Virus record (IMG/VR): IMGVR_UViG_3300015372_000001
Location: 16,738 to 80,737 of that record
Direction: 5' to 3' (one strand)
DNA length: 64,000 nucleotides
Source: a virus
The notes below the pieces were generated by a model. That model did not search any database, was not told the DNA's origin, and was given only the letters and a program-made list of their open reading frames with translations. A program made the translations under genes and the position numbers. Below are positions 10,233 through 29,731 of the stretch, piece after piece (positions within the stretch are counted from its first letter, which is position 1; each line of letters begins with the position of its first letter).

Positions 10233-10238
10233 AACTGC

Positions 10239-13988: not shown

Positions 13989-14003
13989 CACCCGCAGGTT
14001 CCG

Positions 14004-14043
14004 GACATGCAAAAAGCCCCTGACCATCGGGGTCAGGGGCTTC
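14004..14043 (-). terminator. Intrinsic terminator in 5' leader
   Basis: Minus: GCCCCTGACC-CCGAT-GGTCAGGGGC-TTTTTGCATGTC. Confidence 0.8.
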
Positions 14044-14049
14044 AGTGGG

Positions 14050-14090
14050 CGGATGGCCTCTGACAGCCATCCGTCCTGTTTCCGCGCAGG
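14050..14090 (-). ncRNA. Candidate two-hairpin leader RNA element, copy 1
   Basis: Same lengths, spacing and GTCAGAGGC loop as 31197-31237 with compensatory stems. Confidence 0.5.
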
Positions 14091-14112
14091 CAGAAGCCCA
14101 CGCACTGGAATC

Positions 14113-14141
14113 AGTGTATCACATACACAACACTGGGTCCA
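14113..14141 (-). promoter_or_regulatory. SigA-like promoter
   Basis: Minus: TGGACC-17-TACACT with TGn extension. Confidence 0.7.
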
Positions 14142-14252
14142 GGAGACATCGGCAGTGGCCGGTGGGGACCGCGCACCGTGGGGATGCCGTCCTGCCTAAC
14201 CGGCCACCACCGTGGACCGGCCCCTCCACCGGACAACAGAGGGGCCAGTCGT

Positions 14253-14510
14253 CTATGGGCTGGCCTTGCGCCTGACGGCGCACTGCTCGCACCAGCCGAT
14301 GAACCGGTCACGCCGGTCCTGCCCCAGCCGCCACAGCTCGTCGGCGATGAAGTTCGGCACCATCCGGGCGTTCTTCATCCCCGAGCAGTACGGGACGCTG
14401 TGCAGCAGCGCGACTCCTCCCATCGCGGTGGCGGTGGTGTACATGACGCCGTTGCTGGTGCGCTCCCAGTCGGCGAGCACCGACATGGTGGGCGTGAAGG
14501 TGTCAGGCAT
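14253..14510 (-). CDS. Hypothetical protein
   Basis: AAGGAGG RBS before MPDTF. Confidence 0.55.
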   Translation of the reverse strand: MPDTFTPTMSVLADWERTSNGVMYTTATAMGGVALLHSVPYCSGMKNARMVPNFIADELWRLGQDRRDRFIGWCEQCAVRRKASP

Positions 14511-14763
14511 CGGCTGCCTCCTTCTGGTCCGAGTCGTGCCAGGCCAGCCAGTCGGCGAACCCGACGGTGGTGTCACCTAGCGCGACCTCCTGCTGCCAGA
14601 GCGCGTACGCGCCCAGGCTGCTCGGGTCCACGGCGGCAGCACGCTCCCGAGCGCGTCGATCTGCTGCCTCCATGCAGGTGGCGATCCGGTCCAGGTGGTG
14701 CCGGATCATGCTGATGTCGCCGCAGAACTGATGGTCCATGCGGCTACCCGGCTCTCCTGGCAT
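14503..14763 (-). CDS. Hypothetical protein
   Basis: TGATG coupling to upstream gene. Confidence 0.55.
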   Translation of the reverse strand: MPGEPGSRMDHQFCGDISMIRHHLDRIATCMEAADRRARERAAAVDPSSLGAYALWQQEVALGDTTVGFADWLAWHDSDQKEAADA

Positions 14764-15140
14764 CAGCCCTCACCTCCGTGCTGGACGTGGAGATCCTCGA
14801 TCTCCTTGTTCCGCCTGGCTTCTCTCTCGGCGTGGTGAATGTCGCACAGCGTCTTCCACCAGCCGTGGATCGACCGGGTTTCGGCTCGCTTCCCGCACAC
14901 CTCGCAGAGCTTGGTGGAGGCCTCCTCGGCGATGGCGATCGCCTCGTGGAAGCCCTCGGCGTCGGACTGGGCGTAGTACCGCAGCCCGCCGAACTTCTCC
15001 TTGACCTGCTGGAGGGTGAAGTCCGGGTCCAGGTCGTTGAGCTGGAGCTCCAGGTTGCGGAGCAGTTGGTGCCAGCCCTCACCGACGTTGCTAGCCGCAG
15101 TCATCATCGGTGATGCCTGCGGCCCGAAACAGGTGGTCAT
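14763..15140 (-). CDS. Conserved phage protein with Zn ribbon (QVKEKFGGLRYY type)
   Basis: GEGW...QVKEKFGGLRYY...CEVCG...GWWKTLC. Confidence 0.75.
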   Translation of the reverse strand: MTTCFGPQASPMMTAASNVGEGWHQLLRNLELQLNDLDPDFTLQQVKEKFGGLRYYAQSDAEGFHEAIAIAEEASTKLCEVCGKRAETRSIHGWWKTLCDIHHAEREARRNKEIEDLHVQHGGEG

Positions 15141-15511
15141 GACACTCCCTCGGTTTCCTGTGGTTCACGAGCCCAGTACTCGTGAACCTGATCCCAGCCA
15201 TCCAGCCGCTGACCGGCCAGGTGCATCACGTAGATGTCGGCGACGTGCATCATCACTCCGTAGCCCTCCATCGGGCCGCGGGTCACGATGATCCCGCCGA
15301 CGTTGGCGGTCTGCTTGGCACCGGTCACCTCGACCAGCGCCACCAGTTGGGCGAGCTCGTGGACCACCACGTCGTACGTCGGGCAGTCCTTGATGCCGCG
15401 GACTACCTTCAGGATCTGGTAGACCCGTCTGGCCTGCTCGCGCAGATGGTCGTTGTCCTTCAGCTCCGCGCTGCGGGGCATCCACTCGTGGTTCGGATCC
15501 AAGTTGCTCAT
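15137..15511 (-). CDS. Hypothetical protein
   Basis: AAGGAG RBS before MSNLDP; ATGA overlaps. Confidence 0.6.
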   Translation of the reverse strand: MSNLDPNHEWMPRSAELKDNDHLREQARRVYQILKVVRGIKDCPTYDVVVHELAQLVALVEVTGAKQTANVGGIIVTRGPMEGYGVMMHVADIYVMHLAGQRLDGWDQVHEYWAREPQETEGVS

Positions 15512-15717
15512 GTCTCTCCTTTCTCGTGCTCTAGGTTGTGTTGCTCGGCGTACTTCGCGGAGAGCTCGGCGAGCCCTCCCAGACCCTCGGTGAACCGGGG
15601 CCATGCGTGCCCGCAGTGCGGGCACACCCAGTACAGAACTCCGTCGTAGACCCCGAGCACCTCGTAGCCGAGGTAGTCGGGCTCCTCGCACTCCGGGCAG
15701 CCGTCCGGTTCGGCCAT
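15508..15717 (-). CDS. Small Zn-ribbon protein
   Basis: CPEC...YDGVLYWVCPHCGHAWPR. Confidence 0.65.
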   Translation of the reverse strand: MAEPDGCPECEEPDYLGYEVLGVYDGVLYWVCPHCGHAWPRFTEGLGGLAELSAKYAEQHNLEHEKGET

Positions 15718-16079
15718 CAGCCGTTGTAGAGCGAGGTAGTGCCGACGAATGCTCCGGACCACTCCCAGTTGTCCAGCCAGTAGGCGTTGAAGTCACGCTC
15801 GTCCAGCTGAACGGTGTCGTTCACCTCGGCTTCGAGGCGGGCGATCATCACGTCGTAGGACTTCGCGTAGCTGGTGGGCTTCGGAAGCTTGTTCAGCGGA
15901 GAGAAGCTCTGGTAGTTCAGCTTCTGATCCTTCTCCGCTCGATCAGCGACCTTGCGAAGCTCCCGGATCGCCTTCTTCAGCCAGGTCCTCCGGGCCTTCT
16001 TGTACTCCTTGATGTGCTTGGTCCGGTTCTCCTGGAGTTTGTCCAGGAGGTCGGTGGTCTTGACCTCGGTGGGCTTCAC
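15717..16079 (-). CDS. Conserved phage hypothetical protein
   Basis: AAGGAG RBS, GTG start; LQENRTKH..EY...P.SY..YD..IA.LE...LD..DF..Y..D.W.W. Confidence 0.7.
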   Translation of the reverse strand: MKPTEVKTTDLLDKLQENRTKHIKEYKKARRTWLKKAIRELRKVADRAEKDQKLNYQSFSPLNKLPKPTSYAKSYDVMIARLEAEVNDTVQLDERDFNAYWLDNWEWSGAFVGTTSLYNG

Positions 16080-16483
16080 GGTGTTCTCCTTACTGGGTCG
16101 TTGCTGGGGCCGGTTGGCGGATGCCAGTTGCCCTTCTCGTCGCGGTACGCGGGGGTGTCGAGCATCATCACTTCGTCCTCGATCTGGTCGCCGATGGTGG
16201 TGCCGGCGGCGTTCAGGATCTTGGAGCCGCAGTCGGTGCAGCGCATCGGACGGGCTCGCGCCGTCTTCGCATCGCTGCGCTTCTCCAGCTCCTCGGTGAT
16301 CTCGGTCTCGCCGATGAAGCAGATCCCGCCGACGATGATGGCCGGGATGCCCATGGCGAAGGCGGTGGCCATCAGCGCCTTCCCGGCCGGGTCCGGCAGC
16401 CAGTAGCTGACCATCAGCGCGATCCAGGCCACCACCACGGTCACCACCGCGAACGCGGTCACCAGGCGGATGTTGTGCCGCAT
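16076..16483 (-). CDS. Membrane protein with CxxC
   Basis: Two hydrophobic helices; coupled overlaps. Confidence 0.6.
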   Translation of the reverse strand: MRHNIRLVTAFAVVTVVVAWIALMVSYWLPDPAGKALMATAFAMGIPAIIVGGICFIGETEITEELEKRSDAKTARARPMRCTDCGSKILNAAGTTIGDQIEDEVMMLDTPAYRDEKGNWHPPTGPSNDPVRRTP

Positions 16484-16839
16484 CAGTAGCCACGCTCCTC
16501 GCGGATCGTCTTGCGGGCGATCTCCCGGAACCGGCCTTCGAGATCGAGCTCGGTCTTCATCTGGGCCAGTTCCTTGGTGTCGCTGGTGATCACCTGGGCC
16601 TTCTGCTGCTGGTCCAGGTAGATGTTCTTCTCCAGCGCCATCGAGGACCGGTGGTTGGAGTGGTACCAGCCGAGCGCGACGTTGGCGGCGACCGCGGTCG
16701 CGAAGAACAGCACCCCGGACCAGATGAACCGGTAGTTCACCCCGGTGCCCATCCAGATGCCGATCAGTACCAGGGCGAACGCGATCGTGTAGAAGATCGC
16801 GATGTACTTGCTGTAGCGCAGGAAGTCGTTCCAGGTCAT
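16483..16839 (-). CDS. Membrane protein
   Basis: Two hydrophobic helices; GAGGAG RBS. Confidence 0.65.
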   Translation of the reverse strand: MTWNDFLRYSKYIAIFYTIAFALVLIGIWMGTGVNYRFIWSGVLFFATAVAANVALGWYHSNHRSSMALEKNIYLDQQQKAQVITSDTKELAQMKTELDLEGRFREIARKTIREERGY

Positions 16840-17114
16840 GTTCTCTCCTCAGGGTGTTGGGCTTCGTAGAAGTCGATGGAGCCGATCACCATCTGGCCCC
16901 ACAGGTTCACGTCGGACTGGTCCGGGCCGAGGGCGGCTGCATAGGCCAGCCCGACCTCCTCGCGGAGGATCTCCTTGCCGTCGGCGATCCGGGTGACGGT
17001 GAGGATCCCGCGCCAGCTGTTGGTCTCCATCCGGGTCACGTCGGCCCGCCAGGCTCCGTCATCGACGCCTGCGGACCAGACCAGCCCGGCGATCTCGGCG
17101 GGTTCTTCGGTCAT
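16836..17114 (-). CDS. Hypothetical protein
   Basis: GAGGAG RBS before MTEEP. Confidence 0.6.
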   Translation of the reverse strand: MTEEPAEIAGLVWSAGVDDGAWRADVTRMETNSWRGILTVTRIADGKEILREEVGLAYAAALGPDQSDVNLWGQMVIGSIDFYEAQHPEERT

Positions 17115-17178
17115 GGCAGCTCCTCTCACAAGTCGAGGGGGCAGCAAGCAGGACGTGCCTGCTCACTGCCCCCTGGTC

Positions 17179-17412
17179 TCAGGCGACGTTCTTCAGATGG
17201 CGGATGGCCATCAGCACGAACGTCTTGGTGGACTCGAAGTAGGTGATCTTGCGAGTCACCTCGGTGCTGGTCGCGGTGAAGCCGTTCTGGCTGAACAGCT
17301 GACGAGCGAACTCACCGATCTCTCGGGTCATCTTGTCGATCGTGACCTGGTTGGCCTTCCGGGTTCCCTTGGCCAGATCCGCAACGAACTTGATCTCGAT
17401 CCTGCGTGGCAT
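17179..17412 (-). CDS. Hypothetical protein
   Basis: GGAGGT RBS. Confidence 0.6.
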   Translation of the reverse strand: MPRRIEIKFVADLAKGTRKANQVTIDKMTREIGEFARQLFSQNGFTATSTEVTRKITYFESTKTFVLMAIRHLKNVA

Positions 17413-17416
17413 TGCG

Positions 17417-17635
17417 TTACCTCCGTTCCTTCTGTTCAGTCCGAGATGTCATGTGCCAGTACGGGCAGTCCCGGCACTTGTAGGCGCGCAGCCGTTGCCC
17501 GCCCTTGATCGCGCGATTGAGCGTGGCGCTCAGTGCATGCGCCTTGCTCTGGTAGCAGAACTTGCCGCTCTTGCACTCCTTCAGGGCCGGGGAGCGGTGC
17601 GGCTTCCTCCTCCTCGGCTTGATTCGTCGGCCCAT
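17417..17635 (-). CDS. Small basic Zn-finger protein
   Basis: C..GK..Y...RAYKCRDCPYWHMTS motif common in actinophages. Confidence 0.65.
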   Translation of the reverse strand: MGRRIKPRRRKPHRSPALKECKSGKFCYQSKAHALSATLNRAIKGGQRLRAYKCRDCPYWHMTSRTEQKERR

Positions 17636-17645
17636 GGGCCCTCCC

Positions 17646-17945
17646 TTACTCCTCGGTCCGCCCATAGGGGTGCGGAATGCTTCTGACGGCTCGCTTCCGG
17701 CCATGCAGCGCGGCCAGCAGCGACTCGATGTAGGGGTCGTAGGTGCCTCCGGCGATGCCCTCGATCAGGTCATCGATCTCGGGCGGTCCGGAGGACTCCG
17801 CGACCTCTTCCTCCTCGGCGCGGCGCAGCCACTCCCAGGAGTGATCGGACAGATCAGTCACGGTGTGACCGATCGGATGGGTGCAAGCCAGCCGCTCCCC
17901 GCTGACCCGGCTGGTGTACTTCTGGTTGCAGATCCGAGGGCTCAC
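17646..17945 (-). CDS. Hypothetical protein
   Basis: GTGA overlap; Cys/His-rich N-terminus. Confidence 0.55.
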   Translation of the reverse strand: MSPRICNQKYTSRVSGERLACTHPIGHTVTDLSDHSWEWLRRAEEEEVAESSGPPEIDDLIEGIAGGTYDPYIESLLAALHGRKRAVRSIPHPYGRTEE

Positions 17946-18292
17946 GCCGGCTCATCTCCTTCCGGGAGCGGGCTCTCGATCGAGATGACGCGAGGCAGTG
18001 GTTCCGGTCCGACATAGCGCAGACACCGGCAGGTGGTGAGCACCTGCCGGGTGCCCAGCTTGGTCTTCTTGAAGAAGGCGACGGTGTAGTGACAGCCGTC
18101 GTCGTCGCTGTGGAACGAGTAGTGGTGCGTGCACCCACAGGTCGGGTCCGGATCGGTGAGGACCCGGACCCGACGCTGCAGCCGAATGTTCGCCTGGTGG
18201 TAGGTCTCACCCCAGCCGAGGGTGAGGAACCAGCCGATGGCCAGCACCACGTTGCAGGTCAGGCTGACCCACAGCAGGTGCTGTGCGGTCAT
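17942..18292 (-). CDS. Membrane-anchored Cys/His-rich protein
   Basis: N-terminal TM helix; CGCTHH..H...C...CRC.RY.GP. Confidence 0.65.
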   Translation of the reverse strand: MTAQHLLWVSLTCNVVLAIGWFLTLGWGETYHQANIRLQRRVRVLTDPDPTCGCTHHYSFHSDDDGCHYTVAFFKKTKLGTRQVLTTCRCLRYVGPEPLPRVISIESPLPEGDEPA

Positions 18293-18561
18293 CTGACGAT
18301 CGCCGTCTCACGATCGAGGATCTCGTACCGGGAGTAGCCGTTCTCCGGATCGCCGATGATCCGCTGCACCTCCGACAGCACCAGCTGGTCGAGCTGGATG
18401 TGGGTGTGCACCTCCGTGGAGGGCCCGTTGTCGGGGCTCTGGGCGGGCGTACGGCGCTTCCGGGGAGTCGGTTGGACCTCTCCCCTGGCCACGGCCTGAA
18501 CGGCCTTCTCGTGGAGGCTGGCGGTCTCGGGGAGGGGCACGCCCTTCTTGGTCTCAGTCAT
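18289..18561 (-). CDS. Hypothetical protein
   Basis: GGAGG RBS before MTETK. Confidence 0.55.
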   Translation of the reverse strand: MTETKKGVPLPETASLHEKAVQAVARGEVQPTPRKRRTPAQSPDNGPSTEVHTHIQLDQLVLSEVQRIIGDPENGYSRYEILDRETAIVR

Positions 18562-18883
18562 GGTCCTCCGCTCCTTCCACGGTGTCCGGGATGCCGACGA
18601 ACTCCAGGTCCCGGCCACTGGCCTGGAAGATCGCCTTCATGTGCATGAACAGCGCGGCCATCGCCTGCACCGAGTCCTCGTAGTCGCGGATCTGGATCCC
18701 GGCCTTCTCGTCGTCCTCGAGGAAGACAATGGCCTTGACCGGGGTCAGGTTGGCCTCGGGGTCGCCCCGGTGCTCCTCGCGCTCTGCTTCGAGTGCGTCG
18801 TCCAAGGCGTCGGTCATCGACTGGCACAGGCGGGTCAGCCGGGTGAACGGCTGGTCGGCCTGCTTTACGTCCATGTCGGTCAT
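18554..18883 (-). CDS. Hypothetical acidic protein
   Basis: AAGGA RBS, coupled overlaps. Confidence 0.6.
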   Translation of the reverse strand: MTDMDVKQADQPFTRLTRLCQSMTDALDDALEAEREEHRGDPEANLTPVKAIVFLEDDEKAGIQIRDYEDSVQAMAALFMHMKAIFQASGRDLEFVGIPDTVEGAEDHD

Positions 18884-19101
18884 GGCGTTCCTTCCTTGCA
18901 GGTCAGCTGGTGGGCCTTGAGCTCGTGTCGAGCCATGGCCGCCTGCGTCCGCAGCTGTTGCAGACGCCGGCGCTCGGGGGCGCTGATGTGTCGCCCACGA
19001 GCCTTGATGGCCAGGCTGTTGTGCTCACCGGCGACCCGGACCAGGTTCCGCTTGAGCTCACTGCACTCCGCGCAAGCGACCCTGTTCTCGGCGATCCTCA
19101 T
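18880..19101 (-). CDS. Hypothetical protein
   Basis: GAAGGA RBS; CxxC. Confidence 0.55.
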   Translation of the reverse strand: MRIAENRVACAECSELKRNLVRVAGEHNSLAIKARGRHISAPERRRLQQLRTQAAMARHELKAHQLTCKEGTP

Positions 19102-19155
19102 TCCGTTCCTTCCTGGGTGACTGGCATGATGGAACCTCGTTCCCTTCCAAGGCGA

Positions 19156-19200
19156 ACAGCAGAGCCCCGGAGCTTGTGGTGATCCCCGGGGCTCTGCTGT
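19156..19200 (-). terminator. Strong hairpin after 19202..19462, terminator-like
   Basis: ACAGCAGAGCCCCGG / CCGGGGCTCTGCTGT perfect 15-bp inverted repeat; weak U-tract. Confidence 0.55.
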
Positions 19201-19201
19201 G

Positions 19202-19462
19202 TCAGGCGACTGCTCGATCCTCGCAACCGAAGACCGGGCTATTGATGTGGTGGGTGATGTTGCCCAGCTCGTCCCGTCCGATCAGGGTGACCATCCGGAT
19301 GTGCTTCGGGTTGAGCTGGGTGAGCAGGCTGGGATCGATCGCACACGAGAGCATGGTGCTGTACTCATCCATCGCCTCTTCGAGGCTGGTGTGGTTGCGG
19401 CTGAAGCTGCTCCCACTGCAGAGAGTGATCCCCACCTCATACGTCACGGATCTGGTGCCCAT
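19202..19462 (-). CDS. Hypothetical protein
   Basis: AAGGAG RBS before MGTRS. Confidence 0.55.
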   Translation of the reverse strand: MGTRSVTYEVGITLCSGSSFSRNHTSLEEAMDEYSTMLSCAIDPSLLTQLNPKHIRMVTLIGRDELGNITHHINSPVFGCEDRAVA

Positions 19463-19556
19463 GACTCCTTCTTTCGGGGTCGGCAGGTTGGTGGTGACCC
19501 ACGCCTCGCCGACCGGGAGGCATTGGCCTATCTGGCGGGGGTGTAGACCCGAGAGC

Positions 19557-19688
19557 TCACTCGAGCCCCCTGTCATGATCGTGGATCTCTTCGGTGGCCC
19601 GCCGTTGCCAGTAGGCCTCCATGAACAGGTTGGTGAGGATGGAGACCCCCACCGACCCGAATAGACAGGACAGGAAGAAGAGCGACAT
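19557..19688 (-). CDS. Small membrane protein
   Basis: TGATG coupling; MSLFFLSCLFG hydrophobic helix. Confidence 0.45.
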   Translation of the reverse strand: MSLFFLSCLFGSVGVSILTNLFMEAYWQRRATEEIHDHDRGLE

Positions 19689-19873
19689 CAGGCCTCCTCC
19701 CCCGTCCAGTCGTGGCAGTTCCCGCAGTACCCCTCGCGGATGTCGTTCGGGTTGTGCGAGGTCCTGCCGCATCGCGGGCAGGTGAAGCCGGTGATGATCC
19801 GGTCCACCGCCTGCTGGGCCTTGCGGCCCCGCTCCACGAACTCGCGGAGCATGTCCTGGTTGCGCTCGGTCAC
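19688..19873 (-). CDS. Small Zn-finger protein
   Basis: FTCPRCGRTSHNPND..EGYCGNCH. Confidence 0.7.
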   Translation of the reverse strand: MTERNQDMLREFVERGRKAQQAVDRIITGFTCPRCGRTSHNPNDIREGYCGNCHDWTGEEA

Positions 19874-20265
19874 GACTGCTCACCTTCTGCGTCGTCACGG
19901 TCGATGCGCTCGGTGGGCAACTCACCTCTGACCCGGACCTTGATCTGGTACCTGCTCCAGTCATCCCGGCCGACCTCCTGGGCGACCACATCCTGGAAGT
20001 ACTCTGGAATCTCCTCCCAGGGCACCTGGTGGAAGTCGAGCAGCTCGTTCCGCTTCAGCTCCGACCGGTCCCGGTTGAGCATCACCGCGTTCCGCAGGTA
20101 GGCCGGCTGTGCGGTCCCCAGCGGGTGGATGCCGGACGGCTCCGCACTGGGCTGGAGCGTGGTGAACTGGGTCCAGCCTTCGGTAGGGCTGGAGAACCCT
20201 TCCGGTGTCGTCGGCTGGTTGGCGTGACCGACCTCGATGACGATGGTCGGTGCAAGGTGCTTCAT
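19870..20265 (-). CDS. Hypothetical protein
   Basis: AAAGGGG RBS before MKHLAP. Confidence 0.55.
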   Translation of the reverse strand: MKHLAPTIVIEVGHANQPTTPEGFSSPTEGWTQFTTLQPSAEPSGIHPLGTAQPAYLRNAVMLNRDRSELKRNELLDFHQVPWEEIPEYFQDVVAQEVGRDDWSRYQIKVRVRGELPTERIDRDDAEGEQS

Positions 20266-20387
20266 GGTGTCCCCTTTCGGAGGGTTTGGTTCCCCACGAC
20301 GGTCGCCGTGGGCAGGGCGGGTCACCCTCCAGACACGCACATCCTCGACGGAGAGGACGAGGATGTGCGTGCTGGGCAGCGACCCCC

Positions 20388-20909
20388 TCAGTAGCGGGTG
20401 TAGGCCACGACCGACTTCGCGAGGAACTGAGTCTCGTTGAACTTCAGGCCCAGGTACTGCCCGAGGTAGAAGTCGTACATCGGGATCGGCAGCGGCTGCC
20501 TCCCCTCCAGCCTCATCGCTTGGCTCCAGAGCTCGTCATCGACCCGAGGGAGCCGGGAGCGGTGCATCGACGCTGGCGTGGAGTAGTCGGACCACAGGTA
20601 TGGACCACCGCAGATCCGGCCGCCCTGGTTCCCGTACGGCGTGGTGGACTTGAACCTGAAGCTGATGTTCTCCACCATCCCGGTGAACCGGATCTCATAG
20701 ACGGCCGATTCGGTCTCCACCTGGATCGGATTGCTGAGATTGCTATCCCAGTCGCCTGGGTCCACCAGTGCCCGCAGCAGAGCCAGCGAGCGCTTCTCGG
20801 CATTCTCCTGGCGCTGCTCCCGGGACGGTCGTGCGGCCCACCGGCCGTTGGGCAGCCGAGGCTGCTGGCGGAGCCGGTTCAGGACGTTGGCGACAGGACT
20901 GCTGGCCAT
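20388..20909 (-). CDS. Cys-motif family protein 3; candidate Ubl partner
   Basis: GRICGGP...PMYDFYLGQYLGLKFNETQF; ATG immediately after the TAG of Ubl B. Confidence 0.75.
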   Translation of the reverse strand: MASSPVANVLNRLRQQPRLPNGRWAARPSREQRQENAEKRSLALLRALVDPGDWDSNLSNPIQVETESAVYEIRFTGMVENISFRFKSTTPYGNQGGRICGGPYLWSDYSTPASMHRSRLPRVDDELWSQAMRLEGRQPLPIPMYDFYLGQYLGLKFNETQFLAKSVVAYTRY

Positions 20910-21170
20910 CTAGCCCCCGACCGTCTGCGGGACCATGACCACCTGCTCGGCGGTCTGGTCGAAGGTGCGGGTGACCGTGCCCGTGCCACCGCCGGAGTCC
21001 ACGGTGAAGGCGAGCATGCCCTTGGCCATGGACTCATCGAAGGTGGCCATGGCCTCGTTGACCTCGGTCTCGACGGCCGGGTCGTAGATCACGTCGGTGT
21101 GGCCGGAGCTGTCCAGGATGCGCAGGACGTGCTTGCCGGCCGGAACGTCGATCTTGGTGAGAGTGGACAT
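20910..21170 (-). CDS. Ubiquitin/ThiS-like small protein B with C-terminal Gly-Gly (86 aa)
   Basis: GAAGGGA RBS; MSTLTK...QVVMVPQTVGG-stop; paralog of 8860..9120. Confidence 0.7.
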   Translation of the reverse strand: MSTLTKIDVPAGKHVLRILDSSGHTDVIYDPAVETEVNEAMATFDESMAKGMLAFTVDSGGGTGTVTRTFDQTAEQVVMVPQTVGG

Positions 21171-21247
21171 TCGGTTGTTTCCCTTCGTGGTGATACAGCG
21201 AAGCCCCACAGCCGAGTTGCTGTGGGGCGGGTGGAACATCCGTGGGG

Positions 21248-21631
21248 CTACAGGACCACGACGTGGTGCGGCCAGTGGGCGTAGGGGACGGCCTTCTTGC
21301 GGAAGGCCCGCTCGTCGTACTTCAACGCGAGGTACTGCCCGAGCCAGATGTCGGGGTCCGGCAGTCGGCCGCCTGTGTAGGAGAAGGGCTTCGGCCCCCC
21401 ACACAGGGCGAACATGAAGTGCCCTTCGGTGCCGACTGCCTTGATGTTGATCGCGGTCGAGGCGAACCAGACCTGGTAGCGCTGCCCGCTCTGGCTGGTG
21501 AACTCCAGGTGGGTGTAGATCCGTCGCTGGAACCGACCACGCTTGTCCCGTTCGACCTGCCACCGCCAGTCCGAACTGGGGACGGTGGCTCGTAGCAGAG
21601 CCCAGCTGCGTTCATAGGCCGCTCCGGCCAT
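21248..21631 (-). CDS. Cys-motif family protein 2; candidate Ubl partner
   Basis: FALCGGP...LPDPDIWLGQYLALKYDERAF; AAGGAG RBS. Confidence 0.75.
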   Translation of the reverse strand: MAGAAYERSWALLRATVPSSDWRWQVERDKRGRFQRRIYTHLEFTSQSGQRYQVWFASTAINIKAVGTEGHFMFALCGGPKPFSYTGGRLPDPDIWLGQYLALKYDERAFRKKAVPYAHWPHHVVVL

Positions 21632-21814
21632 TCATGCTCCTTCCGTGGTGTGGGCGAGCGCGAGGAACCAGAGCTCCGGAGTGGCGTTCTCGCACCGCTC
21701 CATCGCCATGGCCTTGCGTCCGACCTCCAGTTCCCGTTGGAGGTCGGACGTGGACGCTCCGGGGCTGCTGTCCCAGCCCCAGATGTCGGCGTACCAGTAG
21801 ACGTACTCAGGCAT
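21632..21814 (-). CDS. Hypothetical protein
   Basis: GAGGT RBS before MPEYV. Confidence 0.5.
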   Translation of the reverse strand: MPEYVYWYADIWGWDSSPGASTSDLQRELEVGRKAMAMERCENATPELWFLALAHTTEGA

Positions 21815-21983
21815 CTGCCACCTCGGTGGTGACGGTGATGACCAGGACATGCACCTTGCGGAACTCGTCTCCCGGTGGGGTGGGCTGATCGGGGTGGATG
21901 TGAGGTTCCGTCATCCAACCGCCGTCGTTGGTGCGGACCTGCACCTCGACTCGCTCGGTGTAGGTGACCTCGGCGGCGCTCAT
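21807..21983 (-). CDS. Hypothetical protein
   Basis: GGAGG RBS, ATGA overlap. Confidence 0.5.
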   Translation of the reverse strand: MSAAEVTYTERVEVQVRTNDGGWMTEPHIHPDQPTPPGDEFRKVHVLVITVTTEVADA

Positions 21984-22222
21984 CCGACCTCCTCCTGTTC
22001 GACTGCGATGAACCGTCGGACACAGGCCTCGACGTTGAGGTAGGCGGCTGCACTGATCGGCGAGCAGCGAACTGCTTCGATCAGCGCCACACCAGCCGCC
22101 TCGACTGGGATGTGCTGGATCTCCAGGAGTTCCAGCACCTCTCGGGTCACGTCGAAGATCTGGACCAGGTGGGTGTCCATGAGCACCGACACGGCCAGTT
22201 CGACCTTCTCGTCCAGCGTCAT
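21980..22222 (-). CDS. Hypothetical protein
   Basis: GGAGGT RBS, TGATG coupling (MTLDEK). Confidence 0.55.
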   Translation of the reverse strand: MTLDEKVELAVSVLMDTHLVQIFDVTREVLELLEIQHIPVEAAGVALIEAVRCSPISAAAYLNVEACVRRFIAVEQEEVG

Positions 22223-22536
22223 CACACCTCCAGCGGGAGCAGGGAGCGGGGCTCCATGACCGTGACCTGCCGGGCGGAGACCTCCAGCACCTCGGGGATG
22301 TCCCAGCACGCGACACCTTGTTGACCTTGCGCGCCGGCGATCTCCGGGGTGCAGCCGACCTGCACCTCGTCCAGGAGGCGTTCGATCAGGACCGTGAGCG
22401 GCGGTTGACGGCTGTTGACCAACTCCAGCAGCCCGAAGAAGTGACCGGCGATGTAGCTGAACCGGTAGTAGTTCTCGGTCGCGCCCTTGCCCGCGTTGTC
22501 GGGCTTGGTCCGGAACGTGACGACGTAGATGTCCAT
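22222..22536 (-). CDS. Hypothetical protein
   Basis: GGAGGAG RBS, TGATG coupling. Confidence 0.55.
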   Translation of the reverse strand: MDIYVVTFRTKPDNAGKGATENYYRFSYIAGHFFGLLELVNSRQPPLTVLIERLLDEVQVGCTPEIAGAQGQQGVACWDIPEVLEVSARQVTVMEPRSLLPLEV

Positions 22537-22859
22537 CACTCCTCCTCGTCCTCGCCGTAGGACTCCAGCCAGGCCTGCTCGCGCGCCAGGTCACGGTCCT
22601 GGGCGCGCTCGGCCTGCTCCTCGAGCCAGTCCTCGCACTCGTCCGAGCAGCCCAGCTGCCAGACGCTGACGGGCTGGAAGTGCGCGGCGCAGCGCAGGCA
22701 CTGATCGACCCTGTTGTACGGATCGATCTTCTTGATGCAGGTGATGCACCGGTACTGCTGCTCCGGGTGGGGCTCGAACTCGTCGTCCGCCCAGGTGATC
22801 TCGGCCCCGCAGTCCATGCAGGCGACATCGTGGTAGTACGTGGTGATGGTGGTGCTCAT
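22536..22859 (-). CDS. Cys-rich (double Zn ribbon) protein
   Basis: Three CxxC plus CxxxC; AAAGGAG RBS; first gene after a leader. Confidence 0.65.
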   Translation of the reverse strand: MSTTITTYYHDVACMDCGAEITWADDEFEPHPEQQYRCITCIKKIDPYNRVDQCLRCAAHFQPVSVWQLGCSDECEDWLEEQAERAQDRDLAREQAWLESYGEDEEE

Positions 22860-22880
22860 GGTGACTCCTTTCAGGGGTCA

Positions 22881-22923
22881 GACATGCGAAAAGGCCCCCA
22901 GATCGAGTGATCTGAGGGCCTTC
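22881..22923 (-). terminator. Intrinsic terminator in 5' leader
   Basis: Minus: AAGGCCCTCAGATC-ACTC-GATCTGGGGGCCTT-TTCGCATGTC. Confidence 0.75.
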
Positions 22924-22999
22924 CCGCCGGCAACACCTTGTTGCCGTCGTTGCTGGTCAGAGCCGCTTTTGGGTATGCGGTCGCTGATCAACTGCTCTA

Positions 23000-23033
23000 A
23001 CTATCTCATACAGGCGTGGGAAACGCAAGTCAA
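23000..23033 (-). promoter_or_regulatory. SigA-like promoter
   Basis: AT-richer intergenic; TTGACT/TTGCGT -35 candidates, TTGCGT-17-GATAGT; shares ATGWGATA with the other two leftward promoters. Confidence 0.55.
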
Positions 23034-23070
23034 AACGCTACATTCCCAGCACTTTCTTGCGCCTCAGGAG

Positions 23071-23271
23071 TCACACCCCAGGGAACAGCCGCACGTTGGG
23101 GTCGAACGGCTCGTCCAGGATCTGGATCTCCATCTTGCGGCCTCCCTTGGTGAATACCAGGGCCACGACGCCGTAGTCGGCGGCCTGAACCTTCTCGATC
23201 GCGGCCACGATGTCGTTGCTGCTGGCCTTCATGTGCTGTGCCATCCGCAGGAAGTGGTTGTAGTCGGGCAT
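23071..23271 (-). CDS. Hypothetical protein
   Basis: GGAGG RBS, TGATG coupling (MPDYN). Confidence 0.55.
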   Translation of the reverse strand: MPDYNHFLRMAQHMKASSNDIVAAIEKVQAADYGVVALVFTKGGRKMEIQILDEPFDPNVRLFPGV

Positions 23272-23375
23272 CAGGAGCCTCCTCTGCTCCACCACCACGC
23301 GAGGAGCAGCCCTGTCCAGAAGCAGACGTAGCCGTACAGGGCTGCCCACACGATCACCAGGTGCTGAAGACTCAC
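23271..23375 (-). CDS. 34-aa membrane peptide
   Basis: VSLQHLVIVWAALYGYVCFWTGLLLAWWW...; fills gap exactly with GTGA and TGATG overlaps; not in ORF track. Confidence 0.55.
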   Translation of the reverse strand: MSLQHLVIVWAALYGYVCFWTGLLLAWWWSRGGS

Positions 23376-23641
23376 TCAGCCTCCTCGGCGGCCTCGGAGA
23401 TCTTCGCGATCATGTCGTCCACCACCTGCGGAGCGATCTTGAGCATCGCCTGAGCCAGCCGCAGGTGGTCGTCGTCGGCCTCGAACTCGACGCTCAGGAT
23501 CGCGCCCCTGGCCTTGATCATGACCTGGATCCCCATCTCGGTAGGCCGGATGCTGGCCTCGCCGATGGTCGCGCTGCAGTCGGCGTTGTTCAGCCGGGTC
23601 ATCAGCTCCTCGAGCAGCTCGGCATCGGGTACCTGGGTCAC
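23372..23641 (-). CDS. Hypothetical protein
   Basis: GTGA overlap (VTQVPD). Confidence 0.55.
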   Translation of the reverse strand: MTQVPDAELLEELMTRLNNADCSATIGEASIRPTEMGIQVMIKARGAILSVEFEADDDHLRLAQAMLKIAPQVVDDMIAKISEAAEEAE

Positions 23642-24063
23642 AGCTTCTCCCCAGCGATCTTCTCGGCGATCCGGCGGACCTGGGTTGCCGAGTTGGAGCC
23701 GTCGAACAGCGCGCCCGCCTGCTCGTCGGTGAGACCGAGCTCCGTTATCGCGACGTACCGGACATGGATCCCGTCCACCACGTCCGTGGTGGTGTACCGG
23801 GAGTCGGCATGCATCCCGACCCAGCCGGCCACACAGTAGGCAGTGCCGCAGTGCGCCCGGATCTGGTTGAGCTGCTCGTTGTTGACTCGGGTGCCGTCGC
23901 TGTTCCAGACCATTCTGACCAGGTGGTCGGCCATGTAGTTGGGGGGCGTCACGTACCCGCCCTGCCACCACTCGCGGTCGATCTCGGGCAGAGCGTCCTG
24001 CTCCTCTACCCACTCCACTGCCTTCCGCAGCAGCGGGATGTTGGGACTGATGTTCTCGGTCAT
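23638..24063 (-). CDS. Actinophage hypothetical protein (CGTAYCVAGW motif)
   Basis: W.Q..Y...CGTAYCVAGW...LGL...A..LF. Confidence 0.65.
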   Translation of the reverse strand: MTENISPNIPLLRKAVEWVEEQDALPEIDREWWQGGYVTPPNYMADHLVRMVWNSDGTRVNNEQLNQIRAHCGTAYCVAGWVGMHADSRYTTTDVVDGIHVRYVAITELGLTDEQAGALFDGSNSATQVRRIAEKIAGEKL

Positions 24064-24464
24064 GGGATGATCCCTTCATCCGGGTCGAACCCAGCTCTCG
24101 CGATCTTCTCGCACTTGGCCAGCAGGTCCTCGACCTCCGTCTGGGTGGTGGTATCGGCGTCGTTCCAGCAGGTGACCACGCCGACCGGGGCCGGCTGAAG
24201 GTCTCCGTCCTCGTCGTACTTGCGCTCGTCGTAGTCGAGCTGGCTGGCCAGCAGCCAGACCGCCTCGGTCATGTCCTCGTGCTCGGAGACCAGTTGCTCC
24301 AGGGACTCGTTGTCGGTCTCGAACAGACCCTGACAGAACGCCATCCCGCCCATCATGCAGACGTGGCCGTTCTCCTCGTTCAGGGTGCCCTGAGCCCAGC
24401 CGTGCTCCCGGATGTACTCCCGGGTGCTGGCCAGCAGGTCGGCCACCCTGTCCATGATCTTCAT
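24060..24464 (-). CDS. DUF6197-like protein
   Basis: YIREHGWAQG...CMMGG...WNDA..TT..EV. Confidence 0.7.
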   Translation of the reverse strand: MKIMDRVADLLASTREYIREHGWAQGTLNEENGHVCMMGGMAFCQGLFETDNESLEQLVSEHEDMTEAVWLLASQLDYDERKYDEDGDLQPAPVGVVTCWNDADTTTQTEVEDLLAKCEKIARAGFDPDEGIIP

Positions 24465-24826
24465 GTGGTGATCCCTTCATCCGGGTCAAACCCGGCTCGT
24501 TCGATCTTGGCTGCCTTGCGGAACGTGTCCAGGACGTGCTGCTTGCCCCGGGCACCCCTCTCCTTGTCGTCGTTCCAGGTCATGACGTTGCCCGAGGCGA
24601 GGACGATGTTCTCGGATCCGTCGATCGCCTTCATCAGGGCCTGACAGGCGCGCGCGACCTCCGGGGCCTGTACCTGGCTCTCGTCCAGGTCAGCGGAGAA
24701 CAGGATCGCGCCGACGGCGCAGCTCTGGTTCCGGTTGGGACCGAGGAGGGCACCCCTCCACCAGCCATGGTTCTCGAGGTAGTCGGCCGCGGCGTCCAGC
24801 CAGTCGGCCACGGATGCGAACTTCAC
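24461..24826 (-). CDS. DUF6197-like protein
   Basis: AADYLENHGWWRG...CAVGAI...WND. Confidence 0.75.
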   Translation of the reverse strand: MKFASVADWLDAAADYLENHGWWRGALLGPNRNQSCAVGAILFSADLDESQVQAPEVARACQALMKAIDGSENIVLASGNVMTWNDDKERGARGKQHVLDTFRKAAKIERAGFDPDEGITT

Positions 24827-25203
24827 AGCTCGTCCCTCTCCGCGATCTTGATGGCTCGGTCGAATGCCTCTACCACCTCGGCCTGGGTCCGACCGGCGGC
24901 GTCGTTCCAGTCGATCAGGTCGTACTCCCAGGGCCCGGTGGTGAGCTCGGTGATGGCCATCTCCACCACCCGCTGGTCGTTGTACAAGCGCTCCTGGACG
25001 GGGCCACGGTGCCCGATCTGCTCCAGGACCGCCATCCGCAGCGCTCCGATCGAGCAGAACCTCAGCTGCCCGTCATCGTCGGTCGTCATCTCGATGTTCT
25101 GGGCCCAGCCGTTCGCGATCTTGTCGCGGGCTGCGGTCAGCTCCGCGACTGTTCGCGTCTGCATCAGTGGTCCCTCTCCGCGGGTGTAACGGGGTCGCTT
25201 CAT
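24823..25203 (-). CDS. DUF6197-like protein
   Basis: GWAQ...CSIGAL...WNDAAGRTQAEVVEAFDRAI. Confidence 0.75.
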   Translation of the reverse strand: MKRPRYTRGEGPLMQTRTVAELTAARDKIANGWAQNIEMTTDDDGQLRFCSIGALRMAVLEQIGHRGPVQERLYNDQRVVEMAITELTTGPWEYDLIDWNDAAGRTQAEVVEAFDRAIKIAERDEL

Positions 25204-25688
25204 CTTTGGTTCCCTTCCGTGGGGTTGTCTTCTTCCATCTGCTTGGCGATCTCCTTGGGGTACATCACGACCATCGCGTCGTTCCAGGAGTCGGCGTAGT
25301 TGTACTGGCGCTCCCCGGTTGCGGCGTCCAGAGCATCGATGAACTGGCTCAGAAACGACCGCGAAGTGTCCTCGGGGTGCTCATCACCCGGGGTCCATCC
25401 GGTCCAGCGGGTGACCAGCAGGGAGTGTCCTTGCTCGGCCTCCTCGCGGGTGGAGTACCGGATCATGTCCAGGTCGGTGCTGTCGTCGGGGCCGAAGACC
25501 ATCGACTCGAAGATCAGCGGCGGGCCTTCCTCCCTGAACGAGTGGTCCAGCCCGAGCCAGACCGTGGAGACCCGGCAGCCGCCGGGCAGCTCGGTGTAGC
25601 CGATCCGGCGGTGCTCGAAGTCCTCGAACGTCTCGCACCACTTCTCCATGGTGATCGGCTGACCGTCCATGTCGTAGTAGTGGCTCAT
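25200..25688 (-). CDS. Conserved phage hypothetical protein
   Basis: YYD..G.PI...VSTVWLGLDHSF...PLIFESMVFG...RYST..EA..GH. Confidence 0.7.
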   Translation of the reverse strand: MSHYYDMDGQPITMEKWCETFEDFEHRRIGYTELPGGCRVSTVWLGLDHSFREEGPPLIFESMVFGPDDSTDLDMIRYSTREEAEQGHSLLVTRWTGWTPGDEHPEDTSRSFLSQFIDALDAATGERQYNYADSWNDAMVVMYPKEIAKQMEEDNPTEGNQR

Positions 25689-25957
25689 GTGTACCCCCAG
25701 CCCGAGCTCCCTCCGTCGTTGACCTCCTCGAACTCGACGGTGGTGGTGAACCGCAGCCCAGACTCGGTGACGATGGTGAAGGACTGGATGGTCCCGGAGT
25801 CACTGCGGTTCTCCTCGACGTGATCGACCTTGATCGGGAACTCATCGAAGCCCACGACTGCCCGAAAGCAGCCGAGGATCAGGTACTTCAGAGACCGATC
25901 CGGCATCGGGGTCTCACCGGGCCCCGGTGGGCCCATGCGGATGTGTCTCCTGGTCAT
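25685..25957 (-). CDS. Hypothetical protein
   Basis: AGGAG RBS, ATGA overlap. Confidence 0.5.
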   Translation of the reverse strand: MTRRHIRMGPPGPGETPMPDRSLKYLILGCFRAVVGFDEFPIKVDHVEENRSDSGTIQSFTIVTESGLRFTTTVEFEEVNDGGSSGWGYT

Positions 25958-26109
25958 GACGCCTTCTCCTTCGGTGCCTGGTACCACCAGCGCTTGCACT
26001 CGGCGCAGAAGTGGTCTCCGTCGTTGTGGTCGCCGGTGCAGGTGTGGGTGTGGCCGGGATCGGCGATCCCCGGCATGGTCGCCCGGCAGATCTTCGGCTT
26101 GTCGTTCAC
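25954..26109 (-). CDS. Small Cys/His-rich protein
   Basis: VNDKPKIC...HTCTGDH..DHFCAEC; overlaps on both sides; not in ORF track. Confidence 0.5.
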   Translation of the reverse strand: MNDKPKICRATMPGIADPGHTHTCTGDHNDGDHFCAECKRWWYQAPKEKAS

Positions 26110-26309
26110 AGCCACACCACCTGAGTGGCACCGTCATGACCGTGGATCGACATCGCGTCGTCCAGGTTGGCCCAGATCACGGTGGAGGCCTTCTCGGTCA
26201 GCCACCTGATCGCCACCGTGCCGTCGGTGAACTGCACGCCCTCGGCCACGATCCCGGTGCCCGAGACACCGGAGACATCGCGGTCGCGGAGCAGCCGGAA
26301 GGTCCTCAC
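26106..26309 (-). CDS. Conserved actinophage small protein
   Basis: F.L.RD.DVSGVSGTGIVAEGVQFTDG.VAIRW...IHGHDG.T. Confidence 0.7.
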   Translation of the reverse strand: MRTFRLLRDRDVSGVSGTGIVAEGVQFTDGTVAIRWLTEKASTVIWANLDDAMSIHGHDGATQVVWL

Positions 26310-26647
26310 AGGAACTCCACTCGGGAGAACGGGTTCCCCACAACCGGGTGCTTCGGCTTGTCTCCGTGAGAGGAAGGACCGATCATCTGCTGCCCGGCGT
26401 GGAACTTGCAGATGTCGTTGTAGCAGCTGATGCAGTAGTGGCCGATCATCCCGCAGCAGGACCTGATCGTGACCACCTTCGCCGGGTTGGAGCAGGTGAA
26501 GTTGTTGCCGACGGTCTCCACCGGACCTCCGTTCTCGGCGCGCTGGAACTTGTGCCCGATGCACTTCGGCACCTTCTCCTGGGACTCCTCCGGGTCGAAG
26601 TCCAGGTGGGTGATCTCGGCCGGGACTGTGGTGTTCTGCTCACTCAT
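26306..26647 (-). CDS. Cys-rich hypothetical protein
   Basis: Multiple Cys; GGAG RBS. Confidence 0.55.
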   Translation of the reverse strand: MSEQNTTVPAEITHLDFDPEESQEKVPKCIGHKFQRAENGGPVETVGNNFTCSNPAKVVTIRSCCGMIGHYCISCYNDICKFHAGQQMIGPSSHGDKPKHPVVGNPFSRVEFL

Positions 26648-27107
26648 CGCCGCTCCAGATCCCGAGCAGCGGCTGCCGGTCCCGGTACTCCTCCTCGAAG
26701 TCCTCGTGCCAGGGGAACCTGTCGCTGGCGTCCGGCCAGACGATCTGCAGTGCCTCCACCTGTCCGAAGAGGTGGTTGCACATGGACAGCGGGTAGTCCC
26801 CGAGGGGCTCCAGGACCTCCAGAACGGCCACTCTGAGGCCTCGCAGCACCTCGGTGGAGTAGGTGTCCGGGTAGAACCTGGTACCCCGCTGAACGGCCTG
26901 GTACGCCGCGTTCAGGACACCGTGCGCCTGCTGCTGCACCATGCCCATCACGATCATGTCGGGGTGGTCGTGCTTGGTCATCCCGACGGTGTAGGTGAAG
27001 TACTCGTTGCCCGGGCCGAGGTCGTCCTCGGTGGGGAACACCGAGATCGCCGCCCAGCCGGTGCGCTCGATGTCGTCAAGGACCTTCCGGTCCACCTTGT
27101 CCAGCAT
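26640..27107 (-). CDS. DUF4262-like protein
   Basis: I...GW..I.V...FTYTVG....HPD...G...LQIVWPD...RFPW...QPLL. Confidence 0.8.
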   Translation of the reverse strand: MLDKVDRKVLDDIERTGWAAISVFPTEDDLGPGNEYFTYTVGMTKHDHPDMIVMGMVQQQAHGVLNAAYQAVQRGTRFYPDTYSTEVLRGLRVAVLEVLEPLGDYPLSMCNHLFGQVEALQIVWPDASDRFPWHEDFEEEYRDRQPLLGIWSGDE

Positions 27108-27447
27108 CTTCCTCTCCTTCCGGTGTGGTTGAACGTGCGATCTGCTCCTCGGTGTAGCGGCAGCCGATGGCGAAGCCGTCCACCCACAGCGCCATCCCCA
27201 GCGCCCGCAGATCGAGGTCGGTCTGGAGCGCGGGGTTGATCTCGGTCCCGCGCAGGACCCGTTGGTTGCACAGGTAGACCACGGAGTCGGGGTCGGCATA
27301 GACCGCCACGATCTCCTTGGGATGGTGACCACCCTCGCCGGCCTGACCGTCGAGGTAGTTGACCGCATCGGACAGCCACCAGAAGTCGGTGTGCCGGGGA
27401 CGGTCAGGGAACCTCGGGTCGTTGAGCGGGTCGATGAAGTCGTTCAC
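27076..27447 (-). CDS. Hypothetical protein
   Basis: DPRFPDRP.H.DFW.LS; GTGA overlap. Confidence 0.6.
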   Translation of the reverse strand: MNDFIDPLNDPRFPDRPRHTDFWWLSDAVNYLDGQAGEGGHHPKEIVAVYADPDSVVYLCNQRVLRGTEINPALQTDLDLRALGMALWVDGFAIGCRYTEEQIARSTTPEGEEDAGQGGPEGP

Positions 27448-27590
27448 GACCGCTCACCCACTTCGGGCGGAGTGACGCACGGCTCGCATTGGTCGTCGAG
27501 GTTGTCGCGCTCCCAATCCGTCAGGGCATGGCCGCAGGTTCGGCAGACGATTGCCCGCGAGCGACCCGCGTCATTCTCGGCGTTAGGCAT
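27444..27590 (-). CDS. Small Zn-ribbon protein
   Basis: MPNAE...CRTCG...CEPC; GGAGG RBS; not in ORF track. Confidence 0.5.
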   Translation of the reverse strand: MPNAENDAGRSRAIVCRTCGHALTDWERDNLDDQCEPCVTPPEVGERS

Positions 27591-27843
27591 CGCGTCCTCC
27601 CTCGGGCGGAGTGACGCGGGTCCAGTCGCTCACCATCCGGGTCTCAATGCGGAGGTTCCGCTTCGGGGCTCTGAGCGACCTTTCCTCCACGATGCGGAGC
27701 GCGGCCTGCACGGCGTCAAGGGATGGGACCTCGTGCATCCGAACCGCGTTGTGCGAGCCGTCCATGTTCGGGGTGTCGCTGTCGTAGGCGACGCACCAGA
27801 CCTGGCGTAGCCCATTCTCGGCGGTAGATGTCTGGTCGTTCAT
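27583..27843 (-). CDS. Hypothetical protein
   Basis: AAGGAG RBS, ATGA overlap. Confidence 0.55.
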   Translation of the reverse strand: MNDQTSTAENGLRQVWCVAYDSDTPNMDGSHNAVRMHEVPSLDAVQAALRIVEERSLRAPKRNLRIETRMVSDWTRVTPPEGGRDA

Positions 27844-28148
27844 GGCAGCTCCTTGCAGCTCGGGCAGACCCCGAACATGAAGATCACCTGGACGTTGCCC
27901 CGCATCCGGACCGAGTGGCCGGTGTAGAACTCGTCCGGGCAGTAGGCACCGCAGTTGTCGCAGGTGCGCTCCCAGACCTCACGGTCGTGATCGGTGGCGT
28001 TCTCCTCGGGCTCGGTCAGCGGGGTCATCACCACGTTGGCCGGCACGTCGGCGGCGTTGCCCATGTGCTGCTCCATCAGGGCCAGCCGCTGGTCGATGCT
28101 CGCCCGCAGCCACGTCGGCTCAGGCTGGAGCTTGGGCTTGTCATCCAT
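27840..28148 (-). CDS. Hypothetical protein with CxxC pairs
   Basis: GGAGGAG RBS. Confidence 0.6.
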   Translation of the reverse strand: MDDKPKLQPEPTWLRASIDQRLALMEQHMGNAADVPANVVMTPLTEPEENATDHDREVWERTCDNCGAYCPDEFYTGHSVRMRGNVQVIFMFGVCPSCKELP

Positions 28149-29575: not shown

Positions 29576-29600
29576 TCGGTTCCCTTCCATAGGTTGTCTG

Positions 29601-29656
29601 GGCATGAAAAAGGCCCGGTACCGGAGAAGCTTCCTCTGCTCCTCCGACACCGGGCC
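29601..29656 (-). terminator. Intrinsic terminator in 5' leader
   Basis: Minus: GGCCCGGTGTCGGAG...CTCCGGTACCGGGCC-TTTTTCATGCC. Confidence 0.75.
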
Positions 29657-29731
29657 GGTCTTCCTTGAACCTTCCCAGAACGGTTGGGAAGGGCCTGGAT
29701 CAGGGCATGCGGTGCCCCAAACGCTAGGTTC

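Follow-up and report, generated by a model that had tools for sequence, protein, structure and literature searches.

We analysed a 64,000-nucleotide window, bases 16738-80737 of the 80.7-kb virus record IMGVR_UViG_3300015372_000001 (rated complete by CheckV). A small gene cluster in this window, locus B, appears to represent a phage-specific module of two genes that the window contains twice. Its first gene would encode an 86-residue ubiquitin-like protein (Ubl) of the beta-grasp type with a C-terminal Gly-Gly (GG). The second, translationally coupled to it, would encode a cognate partner with a helix/four-strand/helix domain and an Asn-Cys...Pro-x-x-Asp...Gln constellation. The module, its conservation, its coupling, the co-divergence of the two proteins, their folds and their interface are supported by sequence analysis and by structure and complex prediction. 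We tentatively favor the reading that the two proteins form an obligate Ubl/E2-like pair, in which the partner may be a thioester carrier, perhaps charged by a host E1.

Pairing, coupling and co-divergence of the two genes

Loci seeded with the Ubl or the partner were taken from IMG/VR and from Joint Genome Institute (JGI) metagenomes and scanned with hidden Markov models (HMMs) of both. On 20 other contigs with readable upstream DNA, the GG gene precedes the partner gene on the same strand in all 24 cases, far more than chance would give; ten further contigs stop inside the partner open reading frame (ORF) and were excluded from this count. Partners that usually occur without a GG gene would have spoken against the pairing proposed in the initial annotation of this DNA, and no such partner was found wherever upstream DNA could be read. 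The partner abuts or overlaps the GG gene in 22 of the 24 pairs, its start frequently lying within the GG codons of the Ubl (e.g., GGTGGCTAG). The other two pairs (L007, 295-nt gap; L023, 870-nt gap) contain one small intervening ORF, as in locus A, the second copy in the window. At locus B the junction between Ubl B and partner 3 reads GGG GGC TAG ATG, in frame and with zero spacer. This junction and the coordinates, strand and lengths of the three ORFs of the locus are as first described. About one third of the pairs are in frame with a single stop, as expected by chance, and most pairs overlap out of frame. Programmed readthrough fusion of Ubl B and partner 3 was therefore rejected as a feature of the family.

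Four viral or metagenome contigs (L002, L006, L034, and L035) carry two pairs, as this window does. The neighboring genes of the module vary between phages, so the conserved unit is exactly Ubl then partner. The initial annotation had described a Ubl flanked by two partners; that layout is present at locus B, but an upstream partner 2 is seen in this phage alone. We read partner 2 as an extra paralogue; it has no counterpart upstream of the Ubl in other phages and is separated from the unit by a hairpin. It keeps the interface residues and may share Ubl B. With the Ubl profile, 687 or more clusters (90% identity) were found. The partner profile finds 1,227 representatives (50% identity) at E ≤ 1e-10 and 3,861 at E ≤ 1e-3, the latter an upper bound because the profile includes the low-complexity N-terminal region. 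The ESM Atlas clusters of the module families are mostly viral.

Three types of pair were recognized. In type A the Ubl contains ...GDTRIMWDP...GKIIM..Q..GG, and the long partner combines a Thr/Trp-rich region and a coiled coil with a VHGNIV..HGC.LGR.CVAP core. Type B combines a Ubl ending in ...PQ(Y/T)VGG with a short partner (SENI...(L/I)CGGP), and type C a Ubl ending in ...ITPQIQGG with a VGNV...LCAHP partner. The same partner type stands beside each Ubl type throughout, also in genomes with two types. Over 22 pairs, the pairwise identities of the Ubl and of the partner core are correlated (r = 0.84; 0 of 2,000 Mantel permutations reach this value). Since the split between types accounts for much of this signal, the correlation shows that the module was duplicated as a whole and is paired cognately; it does not show residue-level co-evolution. 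The recurrence of the pairing at locus A, 12 kb away, was confirmed, and the 40-43% identity between Ubl A and Ubl B fits the divergence of roughly 60% noted earlier. The further proposal of two orthogonal tag/enzyme sets is supported in kind by the co-divergence and the constant type pairing.

Predicted folds and the predicted complex

The AlphaFold2 (AF2) model of Ubl B (predicted local distance difference test, pLDDT, 77.6) has the order strand-strand-helix-strand-strand-strand, and its fold matches are nearly all beta-grasp. The C-terminal GG is directly followed by the stop codon in 126 of the 126 Ubl homologues examined, so that the Gly-Gly end is free. By sequence, the Ubl falls into none of the named families (ubiquitin, ThiS, MoaD, Multiubiquitin, and others): no Pfam family scored above threshold for any of the 126 members, and PHROGs returned matches at E > 0.1 only.

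The AF2 model of partner 3 was obtained with a 108-row alignment (pLDDT 90.3; predicted template modelling score, pTM, 0.81). It begins with a helix (30-48) and four strands (62-65, 69-73, 82-86, and 96-100). Helices 112-116 and 125-135 make up a segment missing from partner 2 and from the type A partners, and the C-terminal part consists of conserved helices 144-157 and 159-164 and a last strand. Cys100 ends strand 4, so the conserved Cys lies between the sheet and the next helix as in the E2/UBC fold. Asn81 starts strand 3, and the antiparallel hairpin of strands 3 and 4 would bring it beside Cys100. Four positions (Asn81, Pro143, Asp146, and Gln151) never vary across 108 partners, while Cys100 is kept in 107 of them and Pro103 in 105; none of the His positions is invariant, and a His at Cys+2 occurs in 43. 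The sole representative with Trp at the Cys position, P0213 (TWGGP), may be a sequencing error (TGG versus TGC/TGT, one base) or a true Cys-less member.

Listed with the partner 3 model were the RWD domains of GCN2, RWDD1, RWDD2, and RNF25, the UEV domain of VPS37A, FANCL, and the RWD of Knl1. Foldseek gave nothing significant for the partner against the PDB. Its best rows against BFVD were an unnamed 268-residue entry (E 0.013), which has the same length as the partner gene product of Virus Rctr197k (see below), and an uncharacterized protein of Agrobacterium phage Atu_ph07 (E 0.038). The Pfam models UQ_con, Prok-E2, and RWD had zero matches among the 108 partners, and a profile search of PDB sequences returned no E2. 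The HPN motif of E2/UBC proteins is absent from the partners; the invariant Asn81 sits 19 residues before the Cys.

Co-folding had been suggested as a check in the initial annotation. Ubl B and partner 3, each supplied with its own alignment, are predicted to interact, with an interface score (ipSAE) of 0.85 in three runs versus 0.02 for the best control. Of 80 solved complexes, 58 reach a score of 0.85, as do 2 of 110 mismatched pairs; this calibration holds only roughly with user-supplied alignments. The runs share at least 86% of contacts, with partner pLDDT of at least 85, and the predicted interface uses conserved residues of both proteins. Searches by sequence give no known complex like it, which makes it improbable that the score merely echoes a solved structure. 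The score, the conserved adjacency and the start/stop overlap strongly support the functional module proposed earlier.

The predicted contacts join the Ubl hairpin 19-25 (LD..GDT) and Ubl residues 49-57 and 78-80 to Ala37, Arg40, Leu44, and residues 143-158 of the partner. In the proposed 1:1 complex, the beta1-beta2 hairpin of the Ubl would thus rest on two conserved partner helices. The Ubl tail (80-86) is predicted to lie on the Cys loop (100-105), with residue 81 at 103/104 and residue 83 at 102-104. The GG tail would run antiparallel along this Cys-x-x-Pro loop, a register that likely places Gly85/86 next to Cys100, the terminal Gly beside the Cys.

Layout of the loci, genomic setting and distribution

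The features of both loci and their surroundings are given in Table 1. In alignments, partner 2 lacks the segment after the Cys and retains the invariant Asn, Cys-Gly-Gly-Pro, Pro..Asp, and Gln; its nearest relatives are P0006-P0014 (40-43% identity). Partners 2 and 3 share RS.ALLRA.V...DW, CGGP, and LGQYL.LK(Y/F)(D/N)E..F as first described, while in partner 3 the K.V.Y part of the reported motif is shifted by one residue. The reported insertion of about 30 residues in partner 3 is right in size: from CGGP to the LP..D motif, partner 3 is longer than partner 2 by about 28-30 residues. As the segment is also found in most short-type relatives, partner 2 could just as well have arisen by deletion. 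The gap between partner 2 and Ubl B is 77 nt long and contains a hairpin. The hairpin that closes the cassette has an RNA fold of -38.2 kcal/mol (z = -3.9); no U-tract is present there, so a terminator role is not shown.

Table 1. Coordinates of the module genes and neighboring features in the window
Feature	Coordinates	Strand	Description
Partner 1	7366-8532	-	388 aa, long type; HMM match E 4e-26; ends Ala-Ala
Cys/His-rich small ORF	8542-8799	-	Between Ubl A and partner 1; HNH-like by eye
Ubl A	8860-9120	-	86-aa paralogue of Ubl B; commoner type A; ends QLQGG
Three ORFs upstream of locus A	9357-12317	-	291-aa ORF, 73-aa hydrophobic ORF, 565-aa AAA (PF00004) ATPase; same direction as locus A
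Leftward block	14000-31000	-	About 45 small ORFs
Downstream ORF	19202-19576	-	124 aa; 0.8 kb downstream of partner 3
Hairpin I1	20334-20371	-	14-bp perfect stem; just 3' of partner 3 stop
Partner 3	20388-20909	-	ORF, 173 aa; ATG abuts Ubl B TAG
Ubl B	20910-21170	-	ORF, 86 aa; ends QTVGG, stop directly after
Hairpin I3	21203-21228	-	GC-rich inverted repeat; 10-bp perfect stem, 6-nt loop
Partner 2	21248-21631	-	ORF, 127 aa; short type; HMM match E 4e-47

One sequence, P0005, joins residues 1-73 of partner 2 to ORF 16076-16483 and was rejected as a natural deletion variant without locus B. Sequencing run X8 holds ten joints of this kind between 16351 and 21632 (including 16351/21413), each with 4 shared letters. 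The skipped stretches begin with CA in 9 of the 10, and CATG is found in the coding sequence where P0005 is joined. These features are the signature of a restriction-ligation (proximity-ligation) library, not of a deletion; the region of the junction is intact in other runs. As a proximity-ligation data set, run X8 could in principle connect the phage to its host.

Locus A consists of Ubl A, a small Cys/His-rich ORF without a Pfam match at E ≤ 0.01, and partner 1. Partner 1 has a Thr/Trp-rich region and a coiled coil ahead of a partner core that makes up its C-terminal 120 residues (VHGNIV..HGC..CVAP); its weak N-terminal match to the zinc finger Phage_zn_bind_8 (E 3e-4) is below the cut-off. 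The type A partners (window 7800-8400; L002:6088-6400; L007:5523-5900) have a low-complexity Thr/Trp region in which W..W spacing recurs, followed by a coiled coil rich in Arg and Glu and by the core. Among 146 representatives of the long (type A) partners (P0133-P0278), 93 end in AA and 20 in VA, and 114 end in any Ala, usually preceded by a conserved C.QP(D/N)VP(I/V)L stretch. These C-termini resemble ssrA-type ClpX degrons, which end in AA. The type B short partners end in an aromatic residue instead.

The source is an uncultured soil phage. Rhizosphere metagenomes of 2012 and 2016 hold near-identical DNA, and no RNA data set was listed as containing it. The GC (guanine plus cytosine) content of the window is about 65%, and the DnaE of the phage shares only about 35% identity with those of Gordonia and Brevibacterium phages. 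In the Pfam tally of the 72 window ORFs, we found genes for replication, lysis and structure together with an AAA ATPase and several DUFs, and no adenylating enzyme. Only DUF6197 (three times), DUF4262, a Gp80-like protein, a C2H2 zinc finger and an AAA ATPase are recognized by Pfam in the leftward block of small ORFs. The 'early' timing that the initial annotation gave the module is read solely from its position in this block of small unknown genes. Upstream of locus A, the 291-aa ORF is ParB-N-like by eye and has no Pfam match, and no homologue of this or the two accompanying ORFs was found by BLASTP beside the module in ten other loci. A homologue of the 124-aa ORF downstream of locus B lies directly 3' of the short partner in two other phages (L001:5434-5784; L002:5461-5853; 27-32% identity) and could be a loosely linked third gene. 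A conserved third gene of the module was rejected, since the neighbors differ and only this homologue recurs, in two loci.

Within reachable data, the module is confined to uncultured phages. Pattern scans of 185,579 species genomes found no bacterial or archaeal relative of the Ubl or the partner, although distant prophage copies could escape the patterns. Megablast and tblastn searches of 50,697 deposited phage records found nothing except one divergent pair, in Virus Rctr197k. The family libraries searched (PHROGs, Pfam, PADLOC, PDB sequence profile, and ESM Atlas) name neither family, and PADLOC gave zero matches for the five module proteins. No published description of the pair was found in a full-text search of Creative Commons (CC)-licensed PubMed Central (PMC) papers and bioRxiv. 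A ThiF-type E1 was not found in six module-bearing phage genomes (this one and five others, four of them rated 99-100% complete), and the genome of this phage gave no Prok-JAB match.

The pair of Virus Rctr197k, the only deposited phage with one, lies at KX853510.1 (L040) 3815-5067. An array of clustered regularly interspaced short palindromic repeats (CRISPR) and a transposase-like gene lie at most 2 kb upstream. Its Ubl has no GG (it ends ...STIPG) and carries a partial extra Ubl-like repeat at the N-terminus. Its partner has lost Asn81, Pro103, and Gln151 and kept Cys100, Pro143, and Asp146. The joint loss of the GG and the three residues, in this one case, fits the tail and those residues working together.

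Candidate mechanisms and known systems

The coupled pair, the invariant GG, the invariant Asn, Cys, Asp, and Gln, and the predicted clamp on the tail are best fitted by a partner that handles the Ubl C-terminus chemically. In the reading that we tentatively favor, the partner would be a minimal and very divergent E2-like carrier, on whose Cys the Ubl C-terminus is held as a thioester and from which it is passed to a target. Since no E1 was found in the phage, activation would come from the host or the chemistry would be unlike the textbook scheme. A host E1-like adenylating enzyme could be of the MoeB/ThiF type or the E1 of a host Ubl system. We infer the thioester chemistry, the host E1, the target and the role in infection from the features described above.

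The main rival is a non-catalytic obligate heterodimer, in which Ubl and partner would be subunits of a single protein, the GG a docking peg that fills the partner groove and the Cys structural or a metal ligand; the complex would bind a host or phage component as adaptor, inhibitor or regulator. Two observations favor it. The predicted interface is very large and confident and takes in most conserved residues of both proteins, and neither E1, JAB, nor other Ubl-pathway enzymes were found in the six phage genomes. The start/stop overlap also implies roughly equal synthesis of both proteins, the extra invariant His and Cys of the type A partners could bind metal, and the Rctr197k pair persists without the GG. 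However, a GG directly before the stop in every homologue is stricter than a docking peg seems to require. Asn81 and Gln151 are invariant though not among the listed interface residues, which suggests chemistry over binding, and in Rctr197k the GG was lost along with Asn81, Pro103, and Gln151. We consider the heterodimer possible but rather less than probable.

The GG tail predicted in the Cys cleft would also look product-like if the partner were a Cys peptidase or deconjugase for GG-linked conjugates, with the Ubl in the cleft as a product-like inhibitor, chaperone or activator, and the Cys/Asn/Asp/Gln set could serve a thiol hydrolase as well. The lack of an invariant His, with a Cys+2 His in a minority of the partners, and the absence of papain-, OTU-, and CE-type folds among the structural matches make this improbable. 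MoaD-MoaE pairs are similar in that a gene for a GG-ended beta-grasp protein adjoins the gene for its partner, into which the tail inserts, as is predicted here. A sulfur-carrier pair of the MoaD/MoaE or ThiS type would have its Ubl thiocarboxylated by a host enzyme of the MoeB/MoeZ type and would donate the sulfur in the partner active site. Unlike in those systems, the partner has no MoaE-, ThiG-, or PP-loop-like similarity among the structural matches listed, which does not exclude one, and cofactor or modification genes are absent nearby. We regard this alternative as very improbable.

The initial annotation had also suggested host takeover or a decoy for antiphage systems; the decoy is an idea about the biological role that is compatible with a catalytic or a non-catalytic mechanism. 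The Ubl, presented by the partner, would jam or redirect the E1, E2 or deconjugase of a host Bil, Bub, or type II cyclic oligonucleotide-based antiphage signaling system (CBASS). The position in a leftward block of small genes without assigned function and the restriction to phages are in line with this idea. The absent phage E1 fits reliance on a host E1, and the several paralogous types in one genome, which diverge together, are compatible with an arms race. Bacterial Ubl pathways are known to take part in antiphage immunity (PMC11601596; 10.1101/2023.09.26.559546). On the other hand, sequence similarity to PADLOC defence components is nil, no link leads from these phages to hosts that carry those systems, and it is not obvious why a simple decoy would require a dedicated Cys partner. 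We judge this counter-defence role to be unlikely.

The pair resembles eukaryotic Ubl/E2 systems (ubiquitin, NEDD8, and SUMO with UBC-fold E2s, and the non-catalytic RWD/UEV relatives) in the beta-grasp with a free C-terminal Gly-Gly. The partner model shares the helix/four-strand/helix order, and in it, too, the conserved Cys comes after the sheet and before the next conserved helix. The predicted placing is also alike: the tail follows the Cys loop, and the Ubl body rests on the helix after it. The bacterial Bil, Bub, and type II CBASS Cap2/Cap3 operons always include an E1 and usually a peptidase (PMC11601596; 10.1101/2023.09.26.559546; PMC1779556). Unlike these, the present module is phage-borne, has two genes, matches no PADLOC model and was found with neither ThiF nor Prok-JAB. 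The TAPI Ubl and TAPK JAB/NlpC peptidase of phages lambda and T1 (PMC1779556) are similar in being a phage Ubl-like domain with a conserved C-terminal Gly and a dedicated, adjoining partner gene. TAPI is in the tail operon, fused to a C-terminal domain and served by a JAB peptidase (PMC1779556), whereas the present Ubl stands alone among small non-structural genes in a genome without a Prok-JAB match. All known prokaryotic Ubl systems (ThiS/MoaD, Bil, Bub, CBASS II, and lambda TAPI-JAB) differ from the module in gene content, context and sequence (PMC1779556; PMC11601596; 10.1101/2023.09.26.559546).

The module would follow the known logic of Ubl plus Cys carrier, but it is phage-borne, comes without an E1 and belongs to two families that lack a name; should fold or chemistry turn out to have no relation to E2s, the module would be categorically new. 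To our knowledge, prokaryotic Ubl conjugation has so far been known on the cell side (sulfur carriers and the Bil, Bub, and CBASS operons), always with an E1. If the pair conjugates, phages would hijack host activation enzymes or use a new chemistry. If it does not, it would be an obligate heterodimer of the ubiquitin fold that is both new and very common. With about 260 residues, the two-protein system is compact and directly testable in vitro, and both families can be used to annotate thousands of 'hypothetical' phage genes. A minimal phage tagging system, in which a viral Ubl and an E2-like carrier depend on a host E1-like enzyme or on E1-independent activation for early tagging of host or phage proteins, with several orthogonal pairs per genome, is a doubtful but conceivable outcome. 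If true, it would be the first Ubl conjugation system on the virus side among prokaryotes, and it might counter the Ubl-based immunity of bacteria.
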